From the NCBI GenBank assembly GCA_002412545.1, contig DHVG01000002.1, forward strand, positions 241,872-305,871: DNA of 64,000 bases, written 5' to 3'. Position numbers and translations under genes: made by a program. The DNA comes from Elusimicrobia bacterium UBA5214. Its GTDB lineage: Bacteria; Elusimicrobiota; UBA5214. Positions 2,927 to 51,788 of this stretch are shown in pieces. Every line of letters starts with the position of its first letter. Position 1 is the stretch's first letter. Under the pieces are notes generated by a model, which ran no database searches, was not told where the DNA came from, and saw nothing but the letters and a program-made list of their open reading frames with translations.

Positions 2927-4099
2927 ATGGTTCCTTTTTTCGTAGACAACAGGGGAAAAACACTAATTTCTGTTTTCGATAAGTTGCTTCCTGAATCCGA
3001 AAAATGTTTAGTTGCAGTTGCCTATTTGACAAGTGATGGTCTAACGGCGCTCGGGAAAGTTTTAGGAAGAGTCAGAAATAACGTTAGAATGATTATCGGG
3101 ACAGGTTTTGGACTTTCTGATCCGAAGGCAATTAAGAAACTTAGGAGAATGCCAAAGATTACCTGTAAGATAATGGTAAGCGAATCAAAAGGATTGGATA
3201 GTTCATTCCATCCCAAACTTTACATTTTCTATCTCAAAAACAATGTTGTTCTCTCGGTTGGGTCGTCTAACTTAACCCATGGGGGGTTAGAAAGAAATGA
3301 GGAGGCGAATATAGTCTTGCAATTACCACAGGAGGCTCCATTGGTCAAACAAGCCGAAAAGAGCTTCGAAAGTTGGTGGGCGAAGGCTTTAATTCCTTCT
3401 GATGAACTTCTCAGAAAACTGCAACAAGCACATAGAAAGAGGCAAGAATGGGAAAGAAAAGTCACGAGAGAAGAGGAAAAACTACTCTCAGAATCGGAAG
3501 AAACGATACCAGTAAAATTTGGGGAGAATATGAAGAAGGAGATTAAACAGATATGCAAAGATGTGGGCCCCAAAAGAATACAAATCCGCCGGAGAAGTGA
3601 GAATGAAGCGATTAAAATTCTAAGAAAAAGCAGGAACAACTTCAATAAAAATCTCCTTGAAAAGTTCTTAGAAAAGGCCGATACGGATTACTCGGAGAGA
3701 GGGTCCTCTCAAGGACGATTTGTTTCCACAATTCTAGGTCGAAACAAGAATTTGATTCTCGGGGATAGCATAAAGAAAATACAGTTACTAATTCGTGAGA
3801 TTTTCTTTGAAGAAAGAATAGATAAGGTAGAAGAACTCGTCGGAGACCTAAAAGGAATTAAATACGGATTTGTTTCACTTTTATTATATTTAAAGGACCG
3901 AAACCGTTTTAACTTTTATACTCCACATAAGATAGAACGAGGATTAAGAAATATACGCAAGATAAAAGACAAATTCAGAGGAAATTTCCAAAAAAGATAC
4001 GAACAGTTCAATCACCTTGCCAACAAAATAAAATCAGACTGTAACTGTGAACCACAAGCCATGGATATTATATTTGCTGTTAAGGGAGAGGAAAAGTAA
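2927..4099 (+). CDS. PLD-family (HKD) nuclease-like protein with an uncharacterised C-terminal domain
   Basis: Single HKD-type motif FHPKLYIFYLKNNVVLSVGSSNLTHGGL at about residues 93-120, as in Nuc/BfiI/NgoFVII-type PLD nucleases. Strong RBS GGGGGAG 8 nt upstream. The C-terminal ~200 aa have no motif I recognise. Confidence 0.7.
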   Translation: MVPFFVDNRGKTLISVFDKLLPESEKCLVAVAYLTSDGLTALGKVLGRVRNNVRMIIGTGFGLSDPKAIKKLRRMPKITCKIMVSESKGLDSSFHPKLYIFYLKNNVVLSVGSSNLTHGGLERNEEANIVLQLPQEAPLVKQAEKSFESWWAKALIPSDELLRKLQQAHRKRQEWERKVTREEEKLLSESEETIPVKFGENMKKEIKQICKDVGPKRIQIRRRSENEAIKILRKSRNNFNKNLLEKFLEKADTDYSERGSSQGRFVSTILGRNKNLILGDSIKKIQLLIREIFFEERIDKVEELVGDLKGIKYGFVSLLLYLKDRNRFNFYTPHKIERGLRNIRKIKDKFRGNFQKRYEQFNHLANKIKSDCNCEPQAMDIIFAVKGEEK

Positions 4100-4112
4100 G
4101 AAAACTAGAATG

Positions 4113-4184
4113 TAGAAAATATAGGAATTAGAGGAACTAGGGGCGTTTCCTAATTAAATTAAAGATGGAGAAAGAATTTAAAAT
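4113..4184 (+). repeat. Left copy of an imperfect direct repeat bracketing the AIPR gene
   Basis: The core GGGGCGTTTCCTAATTAAATTAAAGATGGAGAAAGAATTTAAAAT (4140-4184) aligns with 6374-6419 at about 40 of 46 positions by hand. It includes a duplicated ATGGAGAAAGAA start. Confidence 0.7.
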
Positions 4185-4304
4185 AAAGGGACCGTTTCTG
4201 TTTTTTTTCTTATGACTTGAATCGTACAGGGCTTGGAGTGAAAATTTTAAAAGAAGTATAGTCTAAATTTGATTAAATAACACCTTTAATCTGGGAGGTT
4301 TAAA

Positions 4305-6035
4305 ATGAACAGAAAAGAATTGTTTGATTTTACGTTACGAAGCATTAAAGAAAAATCTAAAAAATTCCGGCTTGCAGAACCACAAGGTTTTATTAAATGG
4401 TTTATTGAGCTTTATTTTCTTAATCCGCAAGAAGTGTTTGTTTCTGATGGAAGTAAAGATGGTAAAATCGACTGCTTTTTTAACACCAATAATGGGCGAA
4501 ACGTTAAACATTATCTGGTAAATGCTAAATACACTTCCGAATATGATAATAAGGCTCCAGTTAAGTTTTATGAAGAGATTTCTTATTTTTGTCATGTTGT
4601 TCAAAATAAAGATGCTAGAGGAGAGTATTTGCAAAAAGCGGTTAAGCCAGAATTAGCCCAAAGATATAAAAAATTATTTGATTACTATGATGCTGGCACA
4701 GCCAATTTAGTTTTCGTAACTAATCATACGAAAAATGATCCCCATTATAAAGAAGTTAAAGAATTATCCATAAAGATATTTCATTTGGATGATCTCATCC
4801 AGTTTATTGTTGATGATATAGATATTGCGATGCCGAGAACAGACGACTTAGTACTTAATGATATTCATAATGTGTTATCGCCTGATAAAAAAGACACAGA
4901 AGTCTCTACTTCAATTGTTTTTGCTAAGTTATATGATTTTGTGAAATATATGGAAGATGATCCTTACGATTTACTTTTTGCGAGAAATGTAAGATTGGAT
5001 TTGGGGAATACTCAAGTCAATAAAGAAATAAAAAAAACATTTGAATCAAAGCCTACTGAATTCGCTTTTAGCAATAATGGAATTACGATGCTTTGCGAAC
5101 GTCACATACATAATCCCGGCACAAAAGAACTAACGATTGTAAATCCTCGCGTAGTAAATGGTTCTCAAACCTTGCATAGTATACGTACTATTCAAACTCC
5201 ACCATTAAATGCGAGAGTAATGTTGAGAATTATTGAAATACCGCCTCTGTATGGCGATGATTTACCTGAAAAAATATCTAAAAAGAAAGATATAATGAAT
5301 AAAATTGCAATAAGAAGCAATCAACAAAATCAAATAAAACTGTGGAATTTAGTCGCCAATGATGATTTCCAATTGGAGTTGTATAGATTTTTCAGGGGGA
5401 AGGGTTTTTTCTATGAACGCAGAGAAAAAGAGTATAAAACGAGAAGTAGAGAATTAAGGAGCGTCCAAATTTATCAAGGCCCATCATTAACAAGCATGTG
5501 TCAGCTTATTTGTTGTTACAAATGGCATGACAAAAAATTAGGACCTGCTGTTGCGAGGAATTTAGCGAAGTTATTCGATGGTGCCACGTATGATATTATC
5601 AAAGCAACCAATCCCGAACTTGCTTATCAGCTGTTTCTTTTGGATAAGATAATTTATAAATACTGGGGATTGTTAGCTAACAAAAAATATATCAGCAATC
5701 TAAAAAACTACCCGCATCAATCATTATTTTCTTTAATAATAAAAGTTACAGAATTATCAAATGTTAAGTGGGGGAATCCAGATTTAACTCCGATTTTGGA
5801 AGATTACTGTAATAATGATTCAGAATACAAGAATCTGCGCAACTTTGTTAAGTCTTGTATAGATTTTATATATCAACACTACAAAAAAACTAAACAAGCA
5901 TATCTGAAGAAAGAGAAAGATGCTCTTTCAATTGCTAATTATTTTAAGTCAAATTTATATATGTCGTCGCTATTGAAACAGAACATATATTTTCCGTATA
6001 AGAAATTTACCAAAAAATTATTTCTGAAAATATGA
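4305..6035 (+). CDS. AIPR-family abortive infection (phage resistance) protein
   Basis: N-terminal SDGSKDGKIDCFF...YLVNAKYT (DG.D.GID ... K pattern). Central FSNNGITMLCE...LTIVNPRVVNGSQTLHSI matches the AIPR NGITI / IVNG.QT blocks. RBS GGGAGG. Visibly more AT-rich than the flanking core genes. Confidence 0.75.
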   Translation: MNRKELFDFTLRSIKEKSKKFRLAEPQGFIKWFIELYFLNPQEVFVSDGSKDGKIDCFFNTNNGRNVKHYLVNAKYTSEYDNKAPVKFYEEISYFCHVVQNKDARGEYLQKAVKPELAQRYKKLFDYYDAGTANLVFVTNHTKNDPHYKEVKELSIKIFHLDDLIQFIVDDIDIAMPRTDDLVLNDIHNVLSPDKKDTEVSTSIVFAKLYDFVKYMEDDPYDLLFARNVRLDLGNTQVNKEIKKTFESKPTEFAFSNNGITMLCERHIHNPGTKELTIVNPRVVNGSQTLHSIRTIQTPPLNARVMLRIIEIPPLYGDDLPEKISKKKDIMNKIAIRSNQQNQIKLWNLVANDDFQLELYRFFRGKGFFYERREKEYKTRSRELRSVQIYQGPSLTSMCQLICCYKWHDKKLGPAVARNLAKLFDGATYDIIKATNPELAYQLFLLDKIIYKYWGLLANKKYISNLKNYPHQSLFSLIIKVTELSNVKWGNPDLTPILEDYCNNDSEYKNLRNFVKSCIDFIYQHYKKTKQAYLKKEKDALSIANYFKSNLYMSSLLKQNIYFPYKKFTKKLFLKI

Positions 6036-10913: not shown

Positions 10914-10934
10914 CGTTTCCTCCTAATTTCTGAG

Positions 10935-11090
10935 TAATTCCATAATCAAATTCCAAATTCCAAATAATTTTAAAATTCAAATGTTCTAAATTCCGAATTG
11001 TTTTGTTTATTTGAATTTTGATTATTGAAATTTGTTTGGTATTTGTGATTTGAAATTTGGTATTTGGGATTTATAACCATAATCATTATG
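10935..11090. repeat. ORF-less palindromic AATTCCA/TTTGGTA-word element (same family as the four-helix-bundle element flanks)
   Basis: The left half AAATTCCAAATAATTTTAAAATTCAAATGTTCTAAATTCCGAA is close to 26333-26385. The right half is its approximate complement (GAAATTTGGTATTTGGGATTT). Confidence 0.65.
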
Positions 11091-11106
11091 CCAAAAAAAT
11101 AGGTTA

Positions 11107-13175: not shown

Positions 13176-15905
13176 ATGAATCAATTATTTAAAACTGTAT
13201 CTTTCCCCAAGGAAAAAAGCGAAACAAATAAAACTGAAATTGTTCGCCTAGCTTTCAACAAATCGACAGATTTAGATCTTTACAATATTCTTAATCCTCT
13301 TAGAAGCTCGGATATTAGGGCCCTCCTACCAGATACAAGCTTCAAGAAGTTAACCGAACAAGCGGAACTGGAACGACGTTCATTAAATCAATTGTGCTTG
13401 TTTTTGCTTTCAAAGAAAATAGAAGAAATCAAAAAATCATACGGCGAAAATGTATCTATCCCCCATATTCTAAGTAAAAATTTAGTATATACGGATATTA
13501 ATAAAAAATCAGCAACATTTCAAGACAATAAGATTAACAAAATTCATCGGTGGTATCCATACATTGAAGGTTTTTCATGCACATTTGTCCATGAAATAAT
13601 AGACAATCTACCTTACAAACCAAAATTAATATACGATCCTCTCGCCGGAACTGGTACTACTCAACTTGCCGCAAGTCATAAAAATATTCCTTCCGCATAT
13701 TCTGAAATAAATCCTTTTATGAGCTTCATTGGAGAGTGCAAAGTAAATAAAGTTATACACTTTATCAATGATTTCTACGTGAATCATAGAATGATTGAAA
13801 ATTTCATTAATTTTTTACCAAAGAAATTTAGAAAGCCAACTTCAAATTATATCCAATATGATCAATATTTGGAAAGATTAGGCACGTCAGCATATTTTGA
13901 AAAAGAAGTACTTGAAAGTTTATTAAAAATAAAATCTCTAATAAAAGATTTTTTCGAACCGAAATCTATATTAAAAGATTTTTGTTTATTTGCGTTATCT
14001 ACAATTATAGTTACTGTTTCAAATACAATTAGAAGGGCTGATTTACGGTATAAAAGAAAAGGTGAGAGAAAATATTCCGTAAATGATACTTTACCTTTAT
14101 TCATAAACAAATTGCAAGAAATCTTGTCTGATATTGATTCCATAAAAAATTTATCTTTGTGTGAAACCACACTTGTTTCTAATGATGCGAAAAACATACC
14201 AAAAAATCATGATAAGAAATTTGACTTAGTTATTACATCACCTCCATATGTAAATGGAACTAATTATTTTCGTAACACAAAACTCGAATTAGTTTTGCTA
14301 GATTTCGTTCATAATGTTCAAGAAATTAACTCATTAAAAAAAGAGTCTGTATCTTCGGGAATTAGTAATGTCATTTTGAAAAATAAGGTAAACAACATCA
14401 GAATTCCAGAACTTGAACCAATCGTTAATGAACTTACAAAGTGTGCATACGATAAAAGGATACCAGTTTTGATAGAAAGCTACTTCAGTGATATGCATAA
14501 AGTTTTATCAAATATATCTGAATATTTAGAATCGGAATCGCATTTTTATCTTGATATTGGAGACTCCCAATTTGCAGGTGTCCACATTCCAACAGATAAA
14601 ATATTAGTAACTATAGCTGAACGAAATAATTTTGAATTGATTGATACCAAATTTATTAGAGAGCGTTTTTCAAAAAATGGCATGCCTTTAAAACAAGTGC
14701 TATTATTATTTAAAAAAACCAGGAGTGCTAAAAAGATCTTATTTGGACACGTCGCCACGTGTAATACTGCAAAAGACCTTCTTTTGAAAAATTATCAATT
14801 TTTTAAAGAAACACTCCCGTATAAAGAACCTCCTTATAATAGTCGCAATTGGGGTCATGCTTTACACAATCTTTGTTCATATCAAGGGAAGATAAAACCT
14901 TCATTAGCTCATTTTTTAGTTAAGCTTTTTAGCAAGGAGGGCATGAGGGTTTTAGATCCTCTCTGTGGTGTCGGAACAATACCTCTAGAAGCATGCTTGC
15001 AAGGGCGCATTGGTCTAGGAAATGATCTAAGTTTATTAGCATATGTGAATACTTTTACTAAAGTCGGCAAACCCAATAGTAACAAAACCTACGACGAACT
15101 AGATAAATTAGATAAATATATTGAAAAATACTTGGTTTCTAAAGAAGAGGCGGAAAAAATACATTTTGGATATAATAGAAATATCACGGAGTATTATCAC
15201 GTAGACACTCTTAGAGAAATCATAACGGCCAGGAATTATTTTAAACAAATTGATTCATATGATTGTGAAAAGTCGCTATTGCTTTCTGCTATTTTACATA
15301 TTTTGCACGGGAATAGACCATATGCTCTTTCAAGAAGGTCGCATAATGTAACTCCTTTAGCACCTAATGGACCCTATAAATACAAATCATTAATTGAAAA
15401 AACAAGGATAAAAATAGAAAAAACATTAAAATTAGATCGTTATGATAATTTTAAGTTTGGAATGGTTTTTAACGAAGATTTTAGGAATTTAGACAATTAC
15501 ATTGAACCTAATTCTATTGATTTGATAGCCACATCCCCTCCTTTTTTTGATTCAACGCGTTTTTATATGAGTAACTGGATCAGAATGTGGTTTTGTGGTT
15601 GGGATAAAGAAGATTTTGATATAAAGAAAGAATACTACTTAGAAACACAACAAGTAAAAAATATAAAAGTCTATAATCAATTCTTTATAATATGTAAAGA
15701 CTTGCTAAAAAAAGACGGGAGTCTTGTTATGCATCTTGGAAAATCAGAAAAGCACAATATGGGTAAAACGTTAAGTGAAATTGCTGTCAATAATGGTTTT
15801 GAAGTCTTTGGACTTTTTGACGAAAATGTCTTACATTGTGAAAAGTTTGGTATAAAAGATCAAGGTAGTACAAAAGCCCATCAATTTCTTTTCCTTCTTA
15901 AGTAA
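13176..15905 (+). CDS. Tandem-duplicated DNA methyltransferase (two N6-A/N4-C type modules in one polypeptide)
   Basis: Module 1 has the AdoMet motif DPLAGTGTT (nt ~13634-13660) and the catalytic motif ITSPPYVNG (~14230-14258). Module 2 has LDPLCGVGTIP (~14951-14983) and ATSPPFFDS (~15529-15555). The order and spacing are the same in both halves. Confidence 0.8.
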   Translation: MNQLFKTVSFPKEKSETNKTEIVRLAFNKSTDLDLYNILNPLRSSDIRALLPDTSFKKLTEQAELERRSLNQLCLFLLSKKIEEIKKSYGENVSIPHILSKNLVYTDINKKSATFQDNKINKIHRWYPYIEGFSCTFVHEIIDNLPYKPKLIYDPLAGTGTTQLAASHKNIPSAYSEINPFMSFIGECKVNKVIHFINDFYVNHRMIENFINFLPKKFRKPTSNYIQYDQYLERLGTSAYFEKEVLESLLKIKSLIKDFFEPKSILKDFCLFALSTIIVTVSNTIRRADLRYKRKGERKYSVNDTLPLFINKLQEILSDIDSIKNLSLCETTLVSNDAKNIPKNHDKKFDLVITSPPYVNGTNYFRNTKLELVLLDFVHNVQEINSLKKESVSSGISNVILKNKVNNIRIPELEPIVNELTKCAYDKRIPVLIESYFSDMHKVLSNISEYLESESHFYLDIGDSQFAGVHIPTDKILVTIAERNNFELIDTKFIRERFSKNGMPLKQVLLLFKKTRSAKKILFGHVATCNTAKDLLLKNYQFFKETLPYKEPPYNSRNWGHALHNLCSYQGKIKPSLAHFLVKLFSKEGMRVLDPLCGVGTIPLEACLQGRIGLGNDLSLLAYVNTFTKVGKPNSNKTYDELDKLDKYIEKYLVSKEEAEKIHFGYNRNITEYYHVDTLREIITARNYFKQIDSYDCEKSLLLSAILHILHGNRPYALSRRSHNVTPLAPNGPYKYKSLIEKTRIKIEKTLKLDRYDNFKFGMVFNEDFRNLDNYIEPNSIDLIATSPPFFDSTRFYMSNWIRMWFCGWDKEDFDIKKEYYLETQQVKNIKVYNQFFIICKDLLKKDGSLVMHLGKSEKHNMGKTLSEIAVNNGFEVFGLFDENVLHCEKFGIKDQGSTKAHQFLFLLK

Positions 15906-15923
15906 CAAATACTGTCTTTTTAT

Positions 15924-16913
15924 TCATACATAACCTAATAGTTTTTTATTTTTTAAAGACAATTTATCAATTAACGCATAATCTTTAATCAATTTCTTCA
16001 ACTCCTTAATTCGTTTATTCAAATTTGATCGTTCACGTACCTGTAGATACCTAGTTACACACCTATCAACATTGACATTTGAGTTAACTGTAGGATCTTT
16101 CCGAGATAATAACGCTAAATCAGCACCTGTTATTCTTGCCAATCTTATTAATTCATTGTTAGTATAAAAATGACTGGGCCATTTATTTCTCTTGTTATTG
16201 TTTGCTTTTTTTGAAAGCAATGCTGCATTTTCTTTTGATAAAGGATATAACCAACTTGATGGTAATATGTGGTCTATTTCCCATGAGTCGCGATCATTTT
16301 TATTTAGCTTTTTGGCTGTCTTAAAACACGTGCTATTAAACCTTCTAAATAAATCATCTATAAAGTTTTTGTCTACTGCTTGATTTTCACTCTCAAGCAA
16401 CAAATCTCCCACTCTTCTTTTAATATTCGACTCATATAATTGTTGTTTTGTCCTTTTTGGATTCAAGTATGCATTAATAGCCCCTTTGCAGCTTCTACAT
16501 TCCATTTGTTTTTCCAATGGTCCCCATCCTGTATGTCTGTCAAAAGCATTTGATGGTAAAATTCGTCCACACGCATTACATTGCTTCCAATAAGATTCTT
16601 TGTTTTCTGTTATAATTCTAAAAAAAGCTTGCCAGAACCTTCGACATTTAATTGAAGTTGGGTCAGTAAATTCAGAAGGCCACTCACTAAATGGCAAAGG
16701 TGAGTCTTTACTATGTAAGTAATTACATTCTTTACATTTCCAAGCCGCAGTAGAGTATGCATCGTTGGGATTCAACAAAGTATCTCCTATAGAAAATAAA
16801 TTCAAAGCATCACAACAGATGCAAATATAACCAACCCATGCATTATGTACTTTCTTTCCAATTCCTTTGATTCTTGGTAGTCCCGTTCTATGTTTTGTTT
16901 TTCTCCTACTCAT
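15924..16913 (-). CDS. HNH endonuclease with multiple CxxC zinc-finger motifs (candidate restriction partner)
   Basis: CxxC pairs (CICC, CKEC, CNAC, CRSC) in the N-terminal half. HNH core WEIDHILPSSW...NNNKRNKWP. Convergent with the methyltransferase, with an 18-nt gap. Confidence 0.7.
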   Translation of the reverse strand: MSRRKTKHRTGLPRIKGIGKKVHNAWVGYICICCDALNLFSIGDTLLNPNDAYSTAAWKCKECNYLHSKDSPLPFSEWPSEFTDPTSIKCRRFWQAFFRIITENKESYWKQCNACGRILPSNAFDRHTGWGPLEKQMECRSCKGAINAYLNPKRTKQQLYESNIKRRVGDLLLESENQAVDKNFIDDLFRRFNSTCFKTAKKLNKNDRDSWEIDHILPSSWLYPLSKENAALLSKKANNNKRNKWPSHFYTNNELIRLARITGADLALLSRKDPTVNSNVNVDRCVTRYLQVRERSNLNKRIKELKKLIKDYALIDKLSLKNKKLLGYV

Positions 16914-17184
16914 TTCTATTTAATTTTTACCTTGATAATAGATTGTTATTACTATATTTACGAACAATACATTGTACATTATACAAAAATGCCTGGCAAA
17001 TTCCTACTAAGAAAGCAGAGAGTCATACCTTCTCTGAAAATTGACAATTTTATCTCTGATTTGTCCATTGTATAAGTATACCGAAATTTAGTAAAAATTA
17101 TGAACTTTTCAACGGATACTATTTATATAAAAGCAGAATTGTGACCTTCTAATTTTGGAGACAAGATAAGAACCATCTACTCCA

Positions 17185-17352
17185 TCATTTTGAGTATTTC
17201 TTTTCCTCAAGTTCTTTTTCCTTTTTCCTCTCCTTAAGAATCGCCTTAGTTAATTTTCCTTTTGTCTTCAAGATTCCGGCAATCTTTTCAAAATGTTCAT
17301 CGGCAGATGACTGAAAAACAATGCGGTGATGTTTGCGAATTTTAGCAGGCAT
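17185..17352 (-). CDS. Small Lys-rich hypothetical protein (55 aa) downstream of fic
   Basis: ORF below the track cutoff: MPAKIRKHHRIVFQSSADEHFEKIAGILKTKGKLTKAILKERKKEKELEEKKYSK. AAGGA lies ~10 nt upstream and the ORF starts 41 nt after the fic stop. No recognisable family. Confidence 0.3.
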   Translation of the reverse strand: MPAKIRKHHRIVFQSSADEHFEKIAGILKTKGKLTKAILKERKKEKELEEKKYSK

Positions 17353-17393
17353 TGTGATTCATCCTTTCAGCATTTATATTCCTATTCCTTGTT

Positions 17394-18416
17394 TTATCTT
17401 GCAAGTCCAAATTTACCGGTCTTTCTGCCCCCGTATCTTTTAACAATTTTTCCTTTGATTAAAGGATTGAGAAGAAAATGTGCTCCTTGAACGGTTACTT
17501 TTAACACTGACGATATCTCTTTTGCAGTTAGGTTTCCGGACTCGCGCAAAAGTAACAGTAATTTTTCCTGTTTAGGGGTTAAAGATAGTTGCTCAAGTCC
17601 TTTTGTTTTAGGTAAAGAGATAATCCTTTTCCAGGCACGCTCAAGCGAATCGGCAATTATTTCTAAATAAAACTCAAGCCATTGGGTTAAGTTACCTTTT
17701 TCTTCACGGACAGTATTTAAAGCCGAATAGTAACTGTGTCTGTGTTCATAGATGATGTCATCAATAGCAAATATATGCAGGGTGTCAAATTTACGTCTTA
17801 ACAATTCCCAAGTTCCCAGTGTCCGAGCAACTCTCCCGTTACCGTCAACGAAGGGGTGAATTGCGACAAATTGATAATGGGTAATTCCTGATGAAATTAC
17901 CGGTAAATATCTCGCTGATTCATTGTTTATCCATTCCAAAAATTCATTCATCAGTCCGGGAACGTTTTCTGGTGGTGGCGGGGTATAAATTACTCTGCCT
18001 ATTCCATCTACGATATAGTTCTGGATAGTCCGGTAAGTTCCCACGGGTTCGTGTTCAACCGCTCCTTCTCCGATTATTTTATGGAGTCGGCAGATGTCTT
18101 CGTTAGTCAAAAATTCTTTATCCGCATACTTCTGGATATAGCGGAGGACTGCAAGGTAGTTAACTACTGCTCTTTCGGTCATATTCAGTTTTTTGGTAAT
18201 TCTTTTTTCTGAAGCAAGGGCTCTAACTTCGGGTAAACTTAAAATAAACCCTTCAATAGCAGTTGACCCCATTGCATTTCTTATTGCTGTCTCTTTTTGT
18301 AATGTTGGTTTCCAGGCAACCTGAATCGGTGCACTGATGATTCGCTGACGCAGAGAACTTATTTCGTCAATGAGTTTGGTTAAATGTAAGGATATGGAAA
18401 ATTTTGGTTCTAACAT
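17394..18416 (-). CDS. Fic family protein (AMPylase-type) with C-terminal winged-helix domain
   Basis: Fic motif HPFVDGNGRVAR. N-terminal autoinhibitory-type motif STAIEG ([S/T]xxxE[G/N]). C-terminal LTPKQEKLLLLLRESGNLTAKEIS resembles a wHTH. Confidence 0.88.
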   Translation of the reverse strand: MLEPKFSISLHLTKLIDEISSLRQRIISAPIQVAWKPTLQKETAIRNAMGSTAIEGFILSLPEVRALASEKRITKKLNMTERAVVNYLAVLRYIQKYADKEFLTNEDICRLHKIIGEGAVEHEPVGTYRTIQNYIVDGIGRVIYTPPPPENVPGLMNEFLEWINNESARYLPVISSGITHYQFVAIHPFVDGNGRVARTLGTWELLRRKFDTLHIFAIDDIIYEHRHSYYSALNTVREEKGNLTQWLEFYLEIIADSLERAWKRIISLPKTKGLEQLSLTPKQEKLLLLLRESGNLTAKEISSVLKVTVQGAHFLLNPLIKGKIVKRYGGRKTGKFGLAR

Positions 18417-23208: not shown

Positions 23209-23430
23209 TTACGTAAGAGTTTCACCCCATTGGCGCATTAGTTGTAAGGTTTCTTCCGCTTGTTTTTTGTCTAATTTCTGGATTGCATAGCCAGCGTGGA
23301 CGATGACATAATCACCGACTTTGATGCCACTGACTAAAGTTAAACCGACTTGCCTTTTCGCTCCACCGACTTCAGCGACTGCAAGGTCATCTTTAATTTT
23401 CAAAATTTTCATTGGGATACCGAGACACAT
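23209..23430 (-). CDS. hypC: Hydrogenase maturation chaperone HypC
   Basis: The canonical N-terminus MCLGIPMKI starts at ATG 23430. The 14 extra residues in the ORF track translate the upstream repeat element. Confidence 0.9.
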   Translation of the reverse strand: MCLGIPMKILKIKDDLAVAEVGGAKRQVGLTLVSGIKVGDYVIVHAGYAIQKLDKKQAEETLQLMRQWGETLT

Positions 23431-23930
23431 CTTAATACCTCCTAGTACCAAGCACCAAATTCCAAGTTCCAAATAGCAAACAATAGTTAAATATCAAATA
23501 CAAAATGTCAAACTTATTTTGTTTTCTCAAGAATTTTACTAAATATTTTTATAAACTCACTTGCTTCTTTAATTAGTAATTCTCTCTCTGTTTCATCATT
23601 GTTATCCTTTATCTCCACCAATTTTAACCAGTATCTGCTTTCCTTAGATTCTTTTCGACATATCTTTATTCGCAAGGCAAAATCTTTTTTGCTTAATGCT
23701 TCATTTGCTTCAATATAATTTGCACCAACTGAACCAGATGCTATTTCAATATTAGCCATTGTTTTAGGCAGTTTCTTTGTAAATTCTATTACTCGTTTTG
23801 CGAACTCAAATGTTCTTTCTTCAAGGTCATAATGTTTTGAATTTGCAATTTGAACATTAGATATTGTTTGGGATTTGGAGTTTGGAGCTTGCAATTTACT
23901 GTTGTTAATTATATTCACAGTTGTATTTTT
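23431..23930 (-). mobile_element. Palindromic repeat element carrying the four-helix-bundle gene as cargo (candidate)
   Basis: Flank 23440-23513 (CCAAATTCCAAGTTCCAAATAGCAAACAAT...) and flank 23835-23925 (GTTTTGAATTTGCAATTTGA...TTGGGATTTGGAGTTTGGAG) are mutually complementary in word content. Both flanks recur without the ORF at 33690-33876. Confidence 0.45.
23514..23918 (-). CDS. Four-helix-bundle protein (23S rRNA intervening-sequence protein / Avd-like family)
   Basis: YDLEERTFEFAKRVIEFTKKLP...SGSVGANYIEANEALSKKDFALRIKICRKESKESRYWLKLV matches the family pattern. The first ~30 codons translate low-complexity repeat DNA. Confidence 0.8.
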   Translation of the reverse strand: MNIINNSKLQAPNSKSQTISNVQIANSKHYDLEERTFEFAKRVIEFTKKLPKTMANIEIASGSVGANYIEANEALSKKDFALRIKICRKESKESRYWLKLVEIKDNNDETERELLIKEASEFIKIFSKILEKTK

Positions 23931-26312
23931 TCATCGCTGATATCGCTTTATATTGAAGTGGGCGATGATTGCTTGGCCGAGAGAGACACCCCCGTCATTA
24001 CAAGGAACTTTTTTCTGGTAGTAAACCTTGAAATTATTTTTCTCTAAAAGAGCAACTGTTCTTTTCATTAAGTATAAATTCTGGAATACCCCACCGCTTA
24101 AGCAAACAGTATTTATTCCTCTATTTTGCAATATTTTTTTACAAAGTTCAAGAATAACCTGAGCAATGGTATTATGGAATCTTGCGGAAATTATTCCTTT
24201 ACTTGTTCCTCTCTTGAGGTGATTACCTCTCAAGTCATCTAAGACACAGGCAAAAATTGATAATTGGTCAAGAATGTATTTGCCATCAATAGATTTTATT
24301 TCAAATGGGTAACTACCCTCTTCTTTTTCATCAGTAACCATTTCTAATTCCATTGCTGCTTGGGCATCATAGTTTACTTCTTTTCTTATCCCTAAAAGAG
24401 CCGAGACCGCATCAAAAAATCGTCCACAACTGGATGTAAGCGGGGAATTAAAACCGCTTTTTAATTGAGCAATGGTTGCTTGGATTTCGTTTTCTTTTAA
24501 CCCTTTGCCTAGTGTTTCGGGTAAAGGTTCATTCAAACTATGCAGATAAGCAATGGCTATGCGGTAAGGTTTTTTGATTGCCAGTTCACCACCGGGCAGA
24601 GGTAGATAGGAAAAATGTCCTACGCGTTCAAAATCTTCGTAGTCGGCGAGAAGGAATTCGCCACCCCAGATTTTACCATCAGTTCCGTAACCGGTGCCGT
24701 CAAAAGCAACTCCGATGACTTTGGAATTAGGTAATTCATTTTCCAGCATACAACTGGCGATATGAGCGTGATGGTGCTGGACAGCAACAGTAGCGAGTAG
24801 CGAGTAGAGAGTAGAGAGTTCTAAAGCGTATTTGGTGGAGAAGTAGTCCGGATGGAGGTCGTAGGCGATAATTTTTGGGTTGACCCGAAAAAGTTTTTTG
24901 TAAAGTTTTAAAGTATTCTCAAAATGTTCCAGTGTTTCTAAATTTTCCATATCCCCGATATGTTGGCTGATGAAGGCATATTTTTCTTTGGTCAGACAGA
25001 AAGTATTTTTCAAGTCCGGACCAGTAGCAAGAATTTCTTCTACTTTAAAAGGCAGGCGTATGGGGTAAGGAGCATAACTTCTTGCCCGACGCAGAATTTG
25101 TGCCCCGTGATTAAAGACTCGGGTTACTGAATCATCGTATCTTGAATAAATATCACGGTTATGAAGCAGAAAATAGTCGGCAATGTTTTTTAACCGTCTT
25201 AATGCTTCTTCGTTTTCCATGGCGATTGGTTCTTCGCTGAGATTACCGCTGGTCATTACTAAACAATTGGTAATTGGTGATTGGTAATTGGTAATTGGGT
25301 GAAACAACAGATGGTGGAGGGGAGTGTAGGGGAGCATTACTCCTTGATATTTCTGGTAAGGAGCGACAAATCTGGAAATAGAAGAACCAGCTTTTTCTCC
25401 GAGTAAAACAATTGGTCGTTGGGGAGAAAGCAGTAATTTTGTTTCTTCCGCGGAAAGAAAACAATATTTTTTTATCGTTTCCAAGTCCGGCATCATTAAA
25501 GCGAATGGTTTATCCCGGCGCAGTTTTCTTTTCCGTAATTCTTTTACTGCCCGGTCATTAAGGGCATCACAAGCAAGATGGAATCCGCCTAATCCTTTAA
25601 GTGCAACAATTTTTCCCTCTTTAAGTAATTTGATTGTTTTCTCAATTGCCTTCTCACCTTTTATTGGCTCAATAAATTGAGCCGCTACATTATTTTTTTC
25701 ACCTTTTCCTAAACTCTTAGCCCTTAGCTCTAAGTTCTGAACTAATTCTACTTCCGGTCCACATTGCGGGCAAGCGTTAGGTTGGGCATGAAAACGCCGA
25801 TTTGCCGGGTCATCATATTCTTCTTGACATTCCGGACACATTTTAAAAGAACGCATTGTCGTTTTCGGTCGGTCGTAAGGTATATCTTCAATAATTGTGA
25901 ACCGTGGACCACAATTGGTACAATTGATGAAAGGGTAACGGTAGCGCCGGTCTTTTGGGTCAAAAAGTTCTTTTAAACAGTCATTACAGGTAGCAATATC
26001 CGGTGAGACGGGCTGGAATTCTTTTTCTATAGCGATACTTTCTTTGATTACAAAATTTATGTAGTTTTTCGGTTTAATATTTTCAACTGCTATGGAATCA
26101 ATTTTTGCTGCCGGTGGGGGAGATGTCTTTAATTCCTTAAGAAATGATTCCAGCGATTTTTTTTCTCCCACGATTTCAAAGATTACCCCTTGAGAAGTGT
26201 TACATACCCAACCTTTAAGATTATTTTTTTTCGCAATTCGGTAAACGAAGGGACGGAATCCGACACCCTGAACAATACCTTTTACCGTTATTCTCTGATA
26301 CTTCCTATTCAT
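23931..26312 (-). CDS. hypF: Carbamoyltransferase HypF
   Basis: Acylphosphatase-like N-terminus (VKGIVQGVGFRPFVY), two CxxC...CxxC zinc-finger pairs, YrdC-like and Kae1-like domains, and VQHHHAHIAS. Confidence 0.95.
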   Translation of the reverse strand: MNRKYQRITVKGIVQGVGFRPFVYRIAKKNNLKGWVCNTSQGVIFEIVGEKKSLESFLKELKTSPPPAAKIDSIAVENIKPKNYINFVIKESIAIEKEFQPVSPDIATCNDCLKELFDPKDRRYRYPFINCTNCGPRFTIIEDIPYDRPKTTMRSFKMCPECQEEYDDPANRRFHAQPNACPQCGPEVELVQNLELRAKSLGKGEKNNVAAQFIEPIKGEKAIEKTIKLLKEGKIVALKGLGGFHLACDALNDRAVKELRKRKLRRDKPFALMMPDLETIKKYCFLSAEETKLLLSPQRPIVLLGEKAGSSISRFVAPYQKYQGVMLPYTPLHHLLFHPITNYQSPITNCLVMTSGNLSEEPIAMENEEALRRLKNIADYFLLHNRDIYSRYDDSVTRVFNHGAQILRRARSYAPYPIRLPFKVEEILATGPDLKNTFCLTKEKYAFISQHIGDMENLETLEHFENTLKLYKKLFRVNPKIIAYDLHPDYFSTKYALELSTLYSLLATVAVQHHHAHIASCMLENELPNSKVIGVAFDGTGYGTDGKIWGGEFLLADYEDFERVGHFSYLPLPGGELAIKKPYRIAIAYLHSLNEPLPETLGKGLKENEIQATIAQLKSGFNSPLTSSCGRFFDAVSALLGIRKEVNYDAQAAMELEMVTDEKEEGSYPFEIKSIDGKYILDQLSIFACVLDDLRGNHLKRGTSKGIISARFHNTIAQVILELCKKILQNRGINTVCLSGGVFQNLYLMKRTVALLEKNNFKVYYQKKVPCNDGGVSLGQAIIAHFNIKRYQR
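24789..24818. repeat. In-frame heptamer array AGTAGCG x2, AGTAGAG x2 inside hypF
   Basis: Encodes LSTLYSLLAT just before the conserved VQHHHAH. Same word family as the reverse complement of 10208-10238. Confidence 0.7.
25267..25301. repeat. In-frame heptamer array TTGGTAA/TTGGTGA x5 inside hypF
   Basis: Encodes PITNYQSPITN. A 33-nt stretch is identical except for one base to 32325-32357 in an unrelated gene. Confidence 0.8.
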
Positions 26313-26457
26313 CTAATTTTAAAATTACAAATCCCAAATTCCAAACAATTTCTAAATTCAAATGTTCAAGATCCCAAACTATTTTGATCATTTAAGTTTA
26401 AACTACTCAAATTTATTTGGAATTTGGTGCTTGAGATTTAGGATTTGCTTTCGCGGG
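26313..26457. repeat. ORF-less palindromic AATTCCAAA/TTTGGAATT element between hypF and hypA
   Basis: Shares CAAATTCCAAACAATTTCTAAATTCAAATGTTC with 10948-10990 and ATTTGGTGCTTG with 33850-33862. Confidence 0.65.
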
Positions 26458-32182: not shown

Positions 32183-33679
32183 TTACCTAAAAAAAGTTTC
32201 ACTAATCTGCCGAGTTAAATTCAATAACAATTTTGGATAAATTCCAAAAAATATAGTACACGCTGCAAGCAGAATTAAGGGTATTGCCATAAAGAAATTA
32301 GGGTCAACATTCTTTTGGTAATTGGTGGTTGGTAATTGGTAATTGGTAATCGGAGCAAACCAACCATTGTAAACGATTGGACCATAGTAAATCAAGTTCA
32401 TCAGGCTGCTTAAGAGAAGTATCCCTAAAGCAATTAAACCAGCGGTAGAACTGTAGTAGCCGATTTTTTCTGCTTCAAGAGTACCTAAAGCTAAGTACCA
32501 CTTACTAACGAAACCGTTTAAAGAAGGGAAACCAATCATTGAAAAAGCAAAAAGAGTGAAACAGAGTGTGACAAGGGGCATTCGTTTTCCGATACCACTG
32601 AGGTCTTTAATTTCGCGTAAACCAGTTTGATGAATAAATGTTCCTGCACAGAGAAATAAGCCACCTTTTATAATCGCATGGTTAAAGATATGAATTATTC
32701 CACCAGTTAAACTTAAAGGAGTAATTAAAACTAATCCAAGAATTATATAACCCATCTGGGAAATACTTGAGTACGCAAGCATTTTTTTTATTTCTGTCTG
32801 GGCAATTGCTACCGCTGAACCAAGAAGAATAGTAATTAAAGAAATAACAAACAAACTCGTCAATAACCAAGAATGTGTATAAAAAGATTCCCAGCCAAAA
32901 ACATTATAAATTGTCCTTAAAATTCCATAGCCACCAGCTTTAATCATAATTCCTGAAAGCAAAGCGCTTGCTGGTGAAGGAGCAATTGGATGTGCTTTCG
33001 GTAACCAGACATGTAGAGGAAAGAGACCGGCTTTTATTCCAAAACCAATAATATACCCCCAGAAGATATAAGGCATTAAAGGATGTTCTTTCAAACCCAT
33101 TCCGATGAGGTGAAGTTCTCCGGTATTAGTAATGGCGTAAGTAGCGATTACCGAGAGGAGGAGAATCAATCCCCCGGCGATACCAAGAAAAAGATAGAGG
33201 GTGCCAGCTCGAATTGCTTCTAAAGATTCCTCGTGGATAACTAAAACATAAGCGGCAATCGTAAGAAATTCAAAGAAAATGTATAAAGTCAAAAGGTTAC
33301 CACTAAAAGCCACACCAAGCATTCCCGTAAGTGAAAGTAAAGAAAAAAGGTTATAGCGACCCAGTTCCAAAGTTTCCCGACCCATATATTCAATACTGTA
33401 AATACTTGCTAACATCCAGAGGAATGCACTGATTAAACCAATAAGGAAACTGAGTGCATCCACACGTAGATAAAGATTTATTCCGATTCCCGGGTTCCAC
33501 ATTCCCGAGGTAACAACTTCATTTGCTCTAATCTTTGGATAAAGTGAAACCGTAGCAAAAAAACAGAGAAGACAAACTAATGCTACGAAGAAACTGCTTT
33601 TTCCTCGTTTTGTTTTTTCTATCTGAGGAACGAGAAAAGCAGAAAAAAAAGGTAAAAAAACAATCAATACTGGTAACAT
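32183..33679 (-). CDS. MrpD/NuoM-like antiporter subunit (extra copy, paralog of 44409-45959)
   Basis: HVWLPKAHPIAPSPASALLSG and KKMLAYSSISQMGY. Long stretches are shared with the 516-aa Mrp-cluster gene. Confidence 0.85.
   Translation of the reverse strand: MLPVLIVFLPFFSAFLVPQIEKTKRGKSSFFVALVCLLCFFATVSLYPKIRANEVVTSGMWNPGIGINLYLRVDALSFLIGLISAFLWMLASIYSIEYMGRETLELGRYNLFSLLSLTGMLGVAFSGNLLTLYIFFEFLTIAAYVLVIHEESLEAIRAGTLYLFLGIAGGLILLLSVIATYAITNTGELHLIGMGLKEHPLMPYIFWGYIIGFGIKAGLFPLHVWLPKAHPIAPSPASALLSGIMIKAGGYGILRTIYNVFGWESFYTHSWLLTSLFVISLITILLGSAVAIAQTEIKKMLAYSSISQMGYIILGLVLITPLSLTGGIIHIFNHAIIKGGLFLCAGTFIHQTGLREIKDLSGIGKRMPLVTLCFTLFAFSMIGFPSLNGFVSKWYLALGTLEAEKIGYYSSTAGLIALGILLLSSLMNLIYYGPIVYNGWFAPITNYQLPTTNYQKNVDPNFFMAIPLILLAACTIFFGIYPKLLLNLTRQISETFFR
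32325..32359. repeat. In-frame heptamer array TTGGTAA/TTGGTGG x5 inside an MrpD-like gene
   Basis: Encodes PITNYQLPTTNYQ in the loop before the last TM helix. See 25267-25301. Confidence 0.8.
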
Positions 33680-33689
33680 CCCAATTTCT

Positions 33690-33876
33690 CCCTAAAATAC
33701 CAAATCTCAAATTCCAAATAACAAACAATATTTAAGTTTTAAACTCCAAATTTCAAACATTAAGGTTCTCTCTTCTAAGTCATAGTGTTTTGAATTTGGA
33801 ATTTGAGTATTAGATATTGTTTGTAATTTGTGGTTTGGAGATTGTGATTTGGTGCTTGGAACTTGTAATTTATCCA
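33690..33876. repeat. Deletion derivative of the four-helix-bundle element between two MrpD-like genes
   Basis: 33775-33860 aligns with 23826-23900 (GTCATAnTGTTTTGAATTTGnAATTTGAnnATTAGATATTGTTTG...). 33700-33760 aligns with 23450-23513. About 375 bp of ORF are missing. Confidence 0.7.
33707..33876 (-). pseudogene. Remnant of a four-helix-bundle gene (N-terminal ~36 codons only) inside a repeat element
   Basis: Translates to ...LQVPSTKSQSPNHKLQTISNTQIPNSKHYDLEERT, which parallels NSKLQAPNSKSQTISNVQIANSKHYDLEERT of the intact gene at 23514-23918. It then breaks off. Confidence 0.6.
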
Positions 33877-35376
33877 TTATTTGAAGAACTCCGCTACTAT
33901 TGCTTTCGCTAAAATATGTGGTGCTCCTCCCCAAATACCAAAAATCAATGAAATAAATGCTACCGTTAAAATTGGAATAAGCATACTTAATCGTAATTCC
34001 AATTTCAGATTGCCGATTTCAGATTGCAGATTTTTGGAATTAGGAATTAGAAATTTGGAATTTGCAATCTCCGATTTAAAATAGGCGTAAACGATTGGGG
34101 GAAGAAAAAAACCCAACTCAATGAAACTACTTAAAAGATAGATAAAAACAAAACCGAATTGTCCGAGAGTAAAATATGTCTTTACTAAATAGAATTTACT
34201 TACCCAGCCAGCTACCGGTGGTAAGCCAACAATTCCCCAGGCACCGATAGCAAAAGCAAAACAGGTTAAAGGCATAAATTTTGCTAACCCAGCCATTTCT
34301 TTAATCATACTTTTACCAGTTTGTTTAATAATTGCTCCTGCAGTATAAAACAAAGTTATTTTCATAAATGAATGATAAACAAAATGGAGCAATGCGGCAA
34401 ATAAACCTAATGGATTAGCCGAAGCGGCACCAAGAATAACAAAACTTAACTGGTTTATTGTTGAATAGGCAAGCATTCTTTTTATTTTTGTCTGCCGTAG
34501 GGCGGTAAATGCGGCGATGAGGATAGTAATTGATGCCCAAATACCTAAGACCAAATTTAAATTTAACTGACGGAATAAATCTGCACCGAAAACGCAGTAA
34601 ATTGTGCGAATAATCCCAAAGAGTCCCACTTTAACTACGGCAACCGCATGAAGTAACGCACTAATTGGTGTAGGTGCAATCATCGCTCGTGGCAACCACG
34701 AATGTAAAGGCATTAATGTTGACTTAAATCCAAAGCCGAGCATAAACAAAATAAACAGTAGATAAAGTGTATTTCTATTTTGACCACCTAATTCAGAAAT
34801 ACCAGTGGGAGTAAAACTAATATTGCCACCGGTTAGTTTATAGGTTAAAAATATAGCGAAAAGGAGCGTCAACCCACCAGTGAGAAGATAAACAAAATAG
34901 ATTACTCCGGCACGGAATGCTTCTTCAGTTTCTTCATGAATTACCAGTGGATAGACGACATAAGTTAAAAGTTCATAAAAAATAAACAAAGTTAATAAAT
35001 TAGCGGCAAAGACTATTCCTAATGTAGCAGTAAGTGCAAAAGTTAGACAGGCAAAATAGCGTGTCTGCTGATGTTCTCCGGACATATAACCAAATGAATA
35101 AAGTTCAGTGAAAATCCATAAGAAACTTACTAATAAACCCATAAAGAGACCAAATTTGTCAACTTGAAATTGTAATACAAAAAGTGGTGTTTCTACAAGA
35201 GTGAAAGATGGATAAATACCAGCAAGGACTCCCTTGGTAATCCTTAAAACAAGAATAAAATCAAATAAACAGGTAAGAATAATAATACCGTTCCGCAAAG
35301 ATTTATTTCTTTCTCCAATAAGAATAATAAAAATTGTTGCTAAAACAGGAGTAAGTAGAGAAAATAGTATTAACAT
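33877..35376 (-). CDS. MrpD/NuoN-like antiporter subunit (extra copy, paralog of 46709-48205)
   Basis: HSWLPRAMIAPTPISALLHA and KRMLAYSTINQLSF. About 90 of 139 residues are identical to the 498-aa Mrp-cluster gene in a hand-compared N-terminal stretch. Confidence 0.85.
   Translation of the reverse strand: MLILFSLLTPVLATIFIILIGERNKSLRNGIIILTCLFDFILVLRITKGVLAGIYPSFTLVETPLFVLQFQVDKFGLFMGLLVSFLWIFTELYSFGYMSGEHQQTRYFACLTFALTATLGIVFAANLLTLFIFYELLTYVVYPLVIHEETEEAFRAGVIYFVYLLTGGLTLLFAIFLTYKLTGGNISFTPTGISELGGQNRNTLYLLFILFMLGFGFKSTLMPLHSWLPRAMIAPTPISALLHAVAVVKVGLFGIIRTIYCVFGADLFRQLNLNLVLGIWASITILIAAFTALRQTKIKRMLAYSTINQLSFVILGAASANPLGLFAALLHFVYHSFMKITLFYTAGAIIKQTGKSMIKEMAGLAKFMPLTCFAFAIGAWGIVGLPPVAGWVSKFYLVKTYFTLGQFGFVFIYLLSSFIELGFFLPPIVYAYFKSEIANSKFLIPNSKNLQSEIGNLKLELRLSMLIPILTVAFISLIFGIWGGAPHILAKAIVAEFFK
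33995..34077. repeat. In-frame heptamer arrays (NNNGATT x4, then TTNGNAA x5) inside an MrpD-like gene
   Basis: Encodes SEIANSKFLIPNSKNLQSEIGNLKLE in the loop before the last TM helix. AATTCCAAA word family. Confidence 0.75.
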
Positions 35377-51683: not shown

Positions 51684-51788
51684 AAATCGTTAATTCCGTT
51701 GTGTCCGTTAATACCGTTTTGACCGTTAGACCGTTCAATGGACATAACTGACTAAACGGACTCAACGGAATTAACGGACTTAACGCCC
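51684..51788. repeat. Dyad array (NNNCCGTT x6, then NNAACGGA x4), overlapping the mrpG stop
   Basis: TCCGTTAAT is complementary to ATTAACGGA. Period 8-9. Confidence 0.75.

Follow-up and report, generated by a model that had tools for sequence, protein, structure and literature searches.

A four-helix-bundle gene in the hyp operon of Elusimicrobia bacterium UBA5214 is probably the cargo of a hairpin cassette of the rRNA-intervening-sequence type

In the hyp operon of Elusimicrobia bacterium UBA5214, a small gene of the four-helix-bundle family PF05635 is wedged between hypF and hypC, and the question arises of how it came to lie there and why it is flanked by short inverted words. The stretch of DNA analysed, referred to as the window, comprises 64,000 nucleotides of contig DHVG01000002.1 (positions 241,872 to 305,871). 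The answer we favour is that the locus is probably one copy of a ~0.5-kb selfish cassette, which lives in operon junctions and is of the type known from the intervening sequences (IVSs) of rRNA. The cassette consists of a PF05635 gene within a long imperfect hairpin, the arms of which are inverted arrays of 7-nt words; it has neither a promoter nor a Shine-Dalgarno (SD) sequence, the 5' arm contains its start codon together with the first ~9 codons, and its 3' arm begins at the stop codon.

The open reading frame (ORF) at 23514..23918 on the minus strand encodes 134 amino acids as called from a GTG start. It matched PF05635 (E 2.2e-11; 44.4 bits, curated cut-off 33.8) and TIGR02436 (E 3.2e-15; 56.3 bits, cut-off 24), and its product matched the S23-family structure PDB 2RLD (E 3e-8), to which it is nearer in sequence than to Avd, a protein of diversity-generating retroelements (DGRs). 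An AlphaFold2 (AF2) model, calculated from an alignment of 16 sequences with a predicted template modelling score of 0.63, gave a four-helix up-down bundle like 2RLD and 2GSC, with helix 2 being shorter in the window copy. The best Foldseek fold matches of this model were 2RLD (TMt 0.74), 2GSC and Avd (4DWL, 8UB7). The ORF is neighboured by hypF (23931..26312) and hypC (23209..23430), with hypA before and hypD after, and is, therefore, inside the hyp operon, beside a membrane-bound hydrogenase/antiporter cluster. Both the position of the gene between hypC and hypF and its family had been proposed in an earlier note made from the sequence, and the coordinates and family matches bear this out.

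The flanks, described in the same note as words on one side and their complements on the other, proved to be just that. The inverted arms at 23456-23513 and 23834-23891 are 58 nt long, 71% complementary and composed of AAATTCC-like heptamer words and their complements. The 5' arm extends over 23834..23898 on the minus strand, contains AAAyyCC-type heptamers and an AAACAAT core, and was aligned with 73 relatives (nhmmer match of the 5'-arm profile at 23898-23843, E 1e-7). The 3' arm (23449..23513, minus strand) starts directly after the TAA stop codon (nhmmer match of the 3'-arm profile at 23512-23452, E 3e-5) and ends ~18 nt before the hypC start, just ahead of the hypC ribosome-binding site. 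The total of 9-mer words in the window was in modest excess only (89 versus 67 ± 8 by chance); a chance origin of the words is ruled out by their clustering, the pairing of the arms and independent profile matches.

The same unit was recovered elsewhere. A protein search, in which at least 8000 candidates were scored, all with E below 1e-5, gave matches of 65-72% identity from archaeal and bacterial hosts, namely Methanophagales (anaerobic methanotrophic archaea, ANME-1), other Euryarchaeota, Deltaproteobacteria, Aminicenantia and Omnitrophica. Four such contigs, L003 (ANME-1), L009, L011 and L013 (Aminicenantia), revealed an architecture identical to that of the window cassette, with a lone small ORF between unrelated housekeeping genes; the neighbour pairs are glutamate-synthase-like paralogues, hemB and hemD, a ferredoxin gene and TM1506, and IF-2B and tsaD. 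A metagenome scan yielded 80 further loci, ranging from ANME-1 archaea to Aminicenantia, and both flanks were present in 74 of them. The duplex of 5' and 3' flank had a median of -40.5 kcal/mol versus -22.9 for shuffles, with z < -3 in 49 of the 74 loci. On the 5' side, the consensus comprises three to five AAATyCn words, then AAACAAAT, then TCAAATGACCnAAAT...AAAAC; on the 3' side, it runs from the stop codon as GTTTTGAnCATTTG...GATATTGTTT, followed by nGrATTT words. The ATG was at a fixed alignment column in 63 of the 74 loci, in frame in 61, and in 60 the Tyr codon of YDLEERT followed at a distance of exactly 27 nt; an SD-like motif was found within 20 nt upstream of the ATG in just 4 of the 63. 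Internal stops occurred in 5 of 82 loci. With a median ratio of nonsynonymous to synonymous substitution rates (dN/dS) of 0.08 over 58 gap-free pairs, the four-helix-bundle protein is under strong purifying selection across cassettes. Gene and inverted flanks are one unit, conserved whole across bacteria and archaea in unrelated contexts.

The covariation of the arms was analysed on alignment A1, made up of the 74 full elements, with the pairing register set from the columns; this register was the best offset, with the next-best at ±7. On 34 column pairs, 75.4% of the cells were paired versus 71.1 ± 0.5 after shuffling, cells changed on both sides amounted to 191 versus 117 and the covariation score was 0.228 versus 0.156 (0/500 shuffles in each case); slid-register controls gave 26-54% paired cells. 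At the variable word position, the 5' arm has T, G or C and the 3' arm has A, C or G, with the variant agreeing between the arms in 55 of 68 loci, and UA, GC and CG all occur at each of the column pairs 32/639, 39/607, 46/599 and 53/592. Word type tracks protein clades, yet it switches several times on the protein tree, and the covariation is, therefore, not one inherited event. It was concluded that the arms keep their complementarity by compensatory changes. Whether other copies of the gene are flanked by matching inverted words, a check that the earlier note had suggested, is answered in the affirmative by this covariation together with the duplex scores. Regarding the boundaries of the unit, the 160-aa homologue P0021 reads past the stop region into a second leader-like peptide, NSKYQTPNHKQIPMTKIQNSKQ, which suggests tandem or nested cassettes, and in several metagenome loci (L103, L122, L128, L131) a further arm or gene-less copy is seen immediately upstream.

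Among 44 loci with enough flanking sequence, 37 distinct neighbourhoods were counted, and cassettes between co-directional neighbours were in sense orientation in 23 cases versus 3 in antisense (p = 9e-5). The cassette occupies many unrelated operon junctions and is usually oriented with the host genes.

At the hypF-hypC junction itself, a distant comparison comprised 80 relatives, the best HypD match in the genome collection being 65%, and in most of these hypF and hypC are adjacent without a four-helix-bundle gene between them. The closest relative found (L177, HypD 92%) carries there a 133-aa PDDEXK_3 gene (PF13366, "GxxExxY") that is enclosed by its own inverted word arms, CACGAAT.../...ATTCGTG, and the same kind of gene is at the junction in L094. 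In L178 (HypD 76%), the junction is occupied by a hairpin of the four-helix-bundle family that lacks the gene, and a sediment relative of ~88% nucleotide identity has 527 unalignable letters. The spacers of L095 and L096 were ruled out as clean empty sites, as they hold short gene-less hairpins of the second word family, CACGAAT/ATTCGTG. In relatives, the orthologous spacers do not carry the four-helix-bundle gene, and a further refuting condition proposed in the earlier note is, therefore, not borne out. Conversely, the V-ATPase B-D junction is occupied by a four-helix-bundle cassette of 557 nt in L177 and by a palindrome of 94 nt (1220-1313) in the window. Thus, the window genome and L177, which are ~81-88% identical in these genes, differ in cassette positions, and the cassette is gained, lost or replaced between close relatives.

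Three gene-less copies are present in the window. When it was scanned with nhmmer profiles built solely from the arms of other metagenomes, four sites were found, the cassette and the three gene-less ones (best E 1e-7 to 2e-4); the remaining matches were weak (E > 0.2) and lay inside genes near 34004-34071 and 25251-25296, and also at 42305-42339 and 1231-1281. The copy at 33690..33876 (minus strand) had been reported in the earlier note as the two flanks fused without the ORF. The fused copy is real, as evident from 85.5% identity over 76 nt between 33765-33840 and 23812-23887 (E 4e-13) and 86.5% identity between 33699-33735 and 23454-23490, but between its 5' and 3' arms (68 nt, 72% complementary) it still holds the first ~37 codons of the gene (MDKLQVP...KHYDLEERT). 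On the minus strand, MDKLQVPSTKSQ...IPNSKHYDLEERT is encoded and the 3' arm follows without interruption, and within KHYDLEERT the differences from the 23.8-kb copy are synonymous only, according to direct reading of the sequences. The remnant ORF (33706..33876) is 56 aa long, and its ATG overlaps the stop codon of the upstream antiporter gene (TAATG). As the ORF's first ~37 codons are kept, this copy is to be seen as an internal-deletion derivative of an ORF-bearing unit and not as a bare palindrome.

The second gene-less hairpin (26313..26457, minus strand) lies in the hypA-hypF spacer and keeps the start region AAATGATCAAAATAG between its arms (3'-arm profile, E 1e-6 and 9e-6). The third (10930..11090, minus strand) lies between an ABC-transporter ATPase gene and the next gene (arm profile E 3e-5); its stretch 10947-10986 is 90% identical to 26328-26367. 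When folded as RNA and compared with shuffles, z was -4.2 for 33690-33876, -4.45 for 26313-26457 and -2.1 for 10914-11106, and these folds, along with the profile matches, substantiate the related palindromes noted earlier at ~10935-11090 and 26313-26457. The gene-less palindromes are deletion derivatives of the cassette, an assignment supported by the 5' codons or start region of the ORF that they keep. The cassette decays to gene-less hairpins by internal deletion.

Palindromes of other words were also seen in the window, namely that at the V-ATPase B-D junction, made of ATGAATT words, and one of CCGTTAA words at 51688-51785, between two Mrp/Mbh subunit genes. Heptamer arrays further occur in frame within coding loops of hypF (25265-25298), of an antiporter subunit gene (33877..35376; array at 33990-34075) and of its paralogue (32183..33679; array at ~32310-32360), giving the loop peptides PITNYQSPITN, IANSKFLIPNSKNLQSEIGNLK and PITNYQLPTTNYQ. 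In related sediment metagenomes, the hypF array stretch is repeated in high copy number, the depth spiking to 2104 versus ~130.

The window copy of the cassette is probably decaying, that is, a family member by descent and likely defective; this is read from its frameshifted canonical start and the deletion of IKQLVR, including the motif Arg. The canonical family ATG (23855..23857, minus strand) stands 26 nt, not 27, before the Tyr30 codon and is out of frame, the window being the sole copy with this distance among the 74 loci. The called ORF has a long N-terminal leader because the arm has no stop codon in that frame: on the coding strand, the 5' arm overlaps ~codons 8-29, and across the arm-encoded residues 1-29 the predicted local distance difference test of AF2 was <50. 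The description of the first ~30 codons as translated repeat DNA in the earlier note is, thus, correct as to the overlap; the canonical start is elsewhere (ATG in 60 of 74 loci), and the leader is only stop-free arm. An 18-nt in-frame deletion at ~23741/23742 accounts for the six residues IKQLVR missing from helix 2, which include the near-invariant K, Q and R in comparison with 15 relatives, and helix 2 of the AF2 model is shortened and of low confidence. The family signature GxxRxxxSxxxNxxE includes this Arg (PMC3936711). Relatives show the full signature, whereas the window copy reads NIEI------ASGSVGANYIEANE, with the S, N and E positions retained and the K-Q-L-x-R part, with the Arg, deleted. 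A 99%-identical twin from a second sample shares both the frameshifted start and the six-residue loss. The Coxiella IVS ORF was likewise reported to be decaying (PMC4990558).

As it looks defective, the window copy is an improbable active partner for the gene-less copies nearby. This bears on the proposal in the earlier note of an autonomous/non-autonomous pair resembling MITEs (transposable elements of the miniature inverted-repeat type). The unit and its gene-less deletion derivatives are real, and the long and short forms have their inverted repeats in common, with the short form arising by internal deletion as is typical of MITEs; on the other hand, the long form encodes no transposase and the copy in the window looks defective. 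The interpretation in the earlier note is, on balance, partly supported, with "autonomous", in the sense of the protein driving mobility, being a conjecture.

Cultured carriers were found by a translated search of plasmid records, which gave annotated four-helix-bundle genes in Nostoc, Anabaena, Planktothrix, Dolichospermum, Aulosira, Pseudanabaena, Chlorohelix and Bacteroidota. On plasmids of Nostoc, Aulosira, Planktothrix and Chlorohelix, the copies are flanked by perfect tandem heptamers in inverted orientation. In Nostoc punctiforme PCC 73102, (AATTCGC)x4 precedes the start codon and (GCGAATT)x4 follows the stop codon; the corresponding words are (AATTCGT)x4 and (ACGAATT)x4 in N. flagelliforme (z -11.8), (TTCAAAA)x4 and (TTTTGAA)x5 in Aulosira, (CGTAAAT)x4 and its complement with (CCCCAAT)x6 ahead in Planktothrix, and ATGAAGG-type words in Chlorohelix. 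In Planktothrix agardhii (L182:1350-1480), the (CCCCAAT)x6 array precedes (CGTAAAT)x4, and (AAATCCC)x6(AAATCGT)x6 follows downstream at 1950-2010; the CCCCAAT heptamer we take to be of the classical cyanobacterial STRR1 type (short tandemly repeated repetitive sequences, STRR). In the plasmid records L180, L182, L186 and L187, the neighbours are cas2 and cas1 in Anabaena cylindrica PCC 7122, drmD and an MmeI-like gene in Planktothrix, and a helicase and a methylase gene in Chlorohelix, while in Pseudanabaena the gene is upstream of cas1; in further cases, the neighbours are genes for an RND adaptor and a permease, or fabH and a peptidase gene. The four-helix-bundle family has been reported to be "associated" with CRISPR-Cas loci (PMC3936711, PMC10910872), and this reported CRISPR/defence association may reflect insertion sites of the cassette and not a shared function.

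Heptamer arrays have been described as GGGAATC in Xanthomonas, with ~70 convergent (inverted) pairs, as GGGGA(C/T)T in Nostoc (PMC4692102) and as TAACTGA in Beggiatoaceae (PMC4679880). The STRR, Xanthomonas and Beggiatoaceae arrays are like the cassette arms in being tandem 7-nt units in intergenic, mostly transcribed regions; they differ in that the reports (PMC4692102, PMC4679880) make no link to a four-helix-bundle gene or a hairpin cassette.

The 23S rRNA IVSs that contain this ORF have complementary borders, are excised by RNase III, occur sporadically and are regarded as selfish (PMC4990558), and the four-helix-bundle domain was also found in 16S and 23S insertions of bacteria of the candidate phyla radiation (CPR) (PMC11270868). 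With the IVSs of Leptospira, Coxiella burnetii, Brucella and CPR, the cassette has in common the cargo family (PF05635/S23p) and the enclosure of the ORF by complementary ends, as well as the lack of an own promoter or good SD, transcription as part of a host transcript (predicted for the cassette), sporadic occurrence, horizontal acquisition and a decay-prone ORF (PMC4990558, PMC11270868). Unlike the IVSs, its site is the intercistronic spacer of hyp, V-ATPase, heme, fatty-acid, cas and restriction-modification operons, and its arms are built from arrayed 7-nt words, the variants of which are concerted; derivatives with fused arms and no gene are common. The insertion into an rRNA helix that characterises an IVS is not seen here, with hypF and hypC as flanks and no Rfam families, rRNA included, in the window; none were found in L177 or L178 either.

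RNase III excision, established for the rRNA IVSs, is for the cassette a proposal by analogy. The cassette would be transcribed by read-through from the host operon, and its stem, acting like that of an rRNA IVS, would be cut by RNase III. Cleavage of this kind would detach the cassette RNA from the cistrons on either side, so that the insertion would cost the host little, and would release an mRNA whose SD-less start codon the stem otherwise hides. As a relative of Avd, which binds structured RNA, the protein probably binds the word arrays or hairpin of its own cassette and serves the element, not the host.

Several observations weigh against this reading. Arm pairing was weak or lacking in 25 of the 74 loci (z > -3 in a crude duplex test), RNAalifold, applied to the 74 full elements, predicted no more than a trivial 2-bp pair and failed to find the long-range stem, the flank repeats of one Bacteroidota copy are direct and not inverted, and none of the RNA-seq runs searched for the locus contained it. 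The window copy, moreover, is without the motif Arg and without an in-frame canonical start. Several insertions are common to related genomes, which implies that movement is not frequent. No target-site duplication or precise empty site was found, and no mobility enzyme among the ORFs scanned; duplications or empty sites are not readable because every orthologous spacer (L095, L096, L177, L178) is filled by a hairpin, with the hairpin elements occupying the whole spacer from the upstream stop codon to the downstream ribosome-binding site. Finally, stem mismatches of the G·U type (205) and the A·C type (185) are equally frequent. This lack of asymmetry rules out a sense-RNA-specific pairing constraint, and the constraint may, therefore, act on DNA. 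The mismatch balance, along with the fact that all words change in concert throughout the two arms, hints at a process on the DNA level, for which unit duplication with arm-to-arm templating, or recognition of hairpin DNA, are candidates.

A constraint at the DNA level would also fit an explanation that we consider improbable, namely that the hairpins resemble MITEs, repetitive extragenic palindromes (REPs) or bacterial interspersed mosaic elements (BIMEs) and are moved in trans by a transposase encoded elsewhere, for instance a Y1 enzyme of the IS200/RAYT type (REP-associated tyrosine transposase), with the four-helix-bundle gene being a passenger in the loop. The strand-symmetric stem mismatches agree with it, as does the lack of a mobility gene: the cassette's sole ORF (PF05635) contains no nuclease or transposase domain, and no Pfam domains of transposase, reverse transcriptase or RAYT were found among the genes called by the Joint Genome Institute (JGI) within ±10 kb and a further 30 scanned ORFs of the window, which confirms the earlier note's remark that no transposase or reverse transcriptase is nearby. 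Other ORF-less word palindromes (51688-51785 and 1236-1301 in the window, and the CACGAAT/ATTCGTG hairpins in L095 and L096) and the hypF-hypC ORF of a Stahlbacteria relative, the N-terminus of which is IS200/RAYT-like by eye only, point in the same direction. Against it, arms and gene travel together across phyla with the start codon in the arm at a fixed distance, word type tracks protein clades, purifying selection on the protein is strong in widely differing hosts, and the gene-less copies retain ORF codons and, hence, derive from ORF-bearing units and not the reverse. The arms also do not have the short GTAG-headed form of REPs.

Comparison with the known elements of this kind leads to a similar picture. 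Correia elements of Neisseria, enterobacterial repetitive intergenic consensus (ERIC) sequences or intergenic repeat units (IRU), and other MITEs are like the cassette in being short, intergenic, multicopy, non-coding inverted repeats that are co-transcribed and form mRNA hairpins, and Correia elements are RNase III substrates. They are unlike it in that their presumed parents are transposase-bearing insertion sequences and that they have target duplications (TA for Correia), whereas the parent of the gene-less hairpins carries a four-helix-bundle gene and neither a transposase nor a duplication was found. REPs and BIMEs, likewise, are palindromes that fill convergent or co-directional spacers, occur as many families per genome and are moved in trans, but REPs are 20-40 nt long, have a conserved 5' tetranucleotide and cluster around a RAYT gene; the cassette has ~60-nt heptamer arms that enclose a conserved ORF, and no RAYT was found in the window scans.

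It is still less probable that the cassette moves via an RNA intermediate, the Avd-like protein binding the hairpin RNA, a reverse transcriptase in trans copying it and the cDNA integrating at operon junctions. Avd, a pentamer that resembles proteins of the S23 family, binds to a structured element of RNA within the DGR ribonucleoprotein (bioRxiv 10.1101/2023.10.23.563531; PMC10053308), and it is required by its reverse transcriptase (bioRxiv 10.1101/2023.10.23.563531). The window protein is homologous to Avd and has the same fold (Foldseek 4DWL, 8UB7; PMC10053308), the family is known from transcribed rRNA sites (PMC4990558, PMC11270868), and the strong sense bias within operons fits elements that need transcription. 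Set against this, no reverse transcriptase domain is present among the scanned or annotated window ORFs, which distinguishes the cassette from the DGR context of Avd, and its identity as a DGR was rejected on this ground. Near the gene, no template/variable repeat pair was seen, only short direct word matches, in inspection that included no dedicated search for such repeats. The balance of G·U and A·C mismatches and the lack of visible poly-A or other retro-insertion marks also speak against an RNA intermediate.

That the gene is an ordinary host gene, its flanks a translational lock or operator-like sites for its own product and its patchiness due to horizontal transfer and loss, is very unlikely: the start codon sequestered in the stem with no SD, the conserved protein and some vertically inherited insertions would fit, but not 37 different neighbourhoods in 44 loci, four copies in 64 kb with three of them gene-less at other operon junctions, two close relatives reciprocally carrying and lacking the cassette at two junctions, and, at the identical junction, another small gene that is enclosed by word arms of its own.

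Other mobile contexts gave no match. Neither PADLOC nor PHROGs matched the window four-helix-bundle protein, the viral contigs searched contained no relatives of the gene, and tRNA-linked integration was ruled out here, the window having no tRNA genes.

Further observations were made around the junctions compared above. The last ~9 residues of HypF vary among close relatives (AHFNIKRYQR, ANTRMSTNK and ASFTNRHE; window 23931-23960, L095:560-590 and L177:9140-9169). The HypF C-terminus is encoded by the abutting hairpin arm, and the elements, therefore, rewrite C-termini of host proteins. PDDEXK_3/GxxExxY (PF13366) genes within inverted arms built of words were seen at L177:9166-9567, L177:16300-16677 and L094:2-136, with the words CACGAAT/ATTCGTG and CACAGAT/ATCTGTG. 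The flanks of PDDEXK_3 genes on plasmids are mixed, being inverted in Treponema, direct in a Fusobacteria plasmid and without obvious repeats in Sphingomonas, where the gene lies between fabD and fabG; L177 is the one case in which a parallel PDDEXK_3 cassette is firm. In L177, an insert of ~170 nt (L177:17640-17810) with a GC-rich stem, CCCACCAC...GTGGTGGG, and no Rfam match interrupts the four-helix-bundle gene. A piece of this insert, TCGGTAGACCATGACCTATCGGG, recurs reversed in the hypA-hypF spacer of the same contig (L177:6560-6600), and the insert looks like another small repeat element. In L018 (Candidatus Stahlbacteria), the ORF at hypF-hypC (4750-5700) has the N-terminus MARPMRIDYPGAIHHIFFRGN..., and a four-helix-bundle gene with inverted flanks of different words follows hypD (L018:7227-7565). 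The window further contains defence-type genes at 2927-6035 and 13176-18416, encoding a PLD/NgoFVII-like nuclease, an AIPR protein, an Eco57I-like methylase-nuclease fusion, an HNH_4 protein and Fic. As L177 carries other genes after hypD, e.g., SLFN_AlbA_2, this stretch of the window looks like a variable island.

In the literature accessible without journal subscription, no description of a hairpin cassette of this kind outside rRNA, of its gene-less derivatives or of a link to heptamer arrays was found. The cassette is best viewed as an IVS-type selfish element, apparently of a new form, in protein-coding operon junctions across many phyla, with a possible bearing on the origin of heptamer arrays. 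A much wider view, which we put forward tentatively and hold to be rather doubtful, is that PF05635 genes constitute a new class of transposase-less mobile cassettes, in which the Avd-like protein as the sole factor would recognise its own heptamer arms, as hairpins of either DNA or RNA, and promote the copying of the cassette to rRNA helices and operon junctions; the STRR and Xanthomonas heptamer arrays would then be arms or gene-less remnants, and PDDEXK_3 would represent a parallel class.

Among the small proteins of bacteria and archaea without a known function, those of PF05635 rank with the most numerous, with at least 8000 close relatives scored here. The genes have been met in rRNA IVSs, in DGRs (as Avd) and as unexplained neighbours of cas and defence genes, and many of them are the cargo of hairpin cassettes that insert at operon junctions. 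The cassette offers an explanation for the scatter of PF05635 across genomes, for its presence within cas, DISARM, restriction-modification, fab, heme, hyp and ATPase operons and for odd low-complexity N-termini in databases, and defence screens that rely on guilt by association may pick up these genes spuriously. In annotation, the cassettes give rise to by-products, namely leaders and host-protein C-terminal tails encoded by the arms, and remnant mini-ORFs. The cassette also ties the protein family to tandem heptamer arrays, the origin of which has been open since their description in cyanobacteria, and its carriers include the cultured, tractable strains Nostoc punctiforme PCC 73102 and Anabaena cylindrica PCC 7122.

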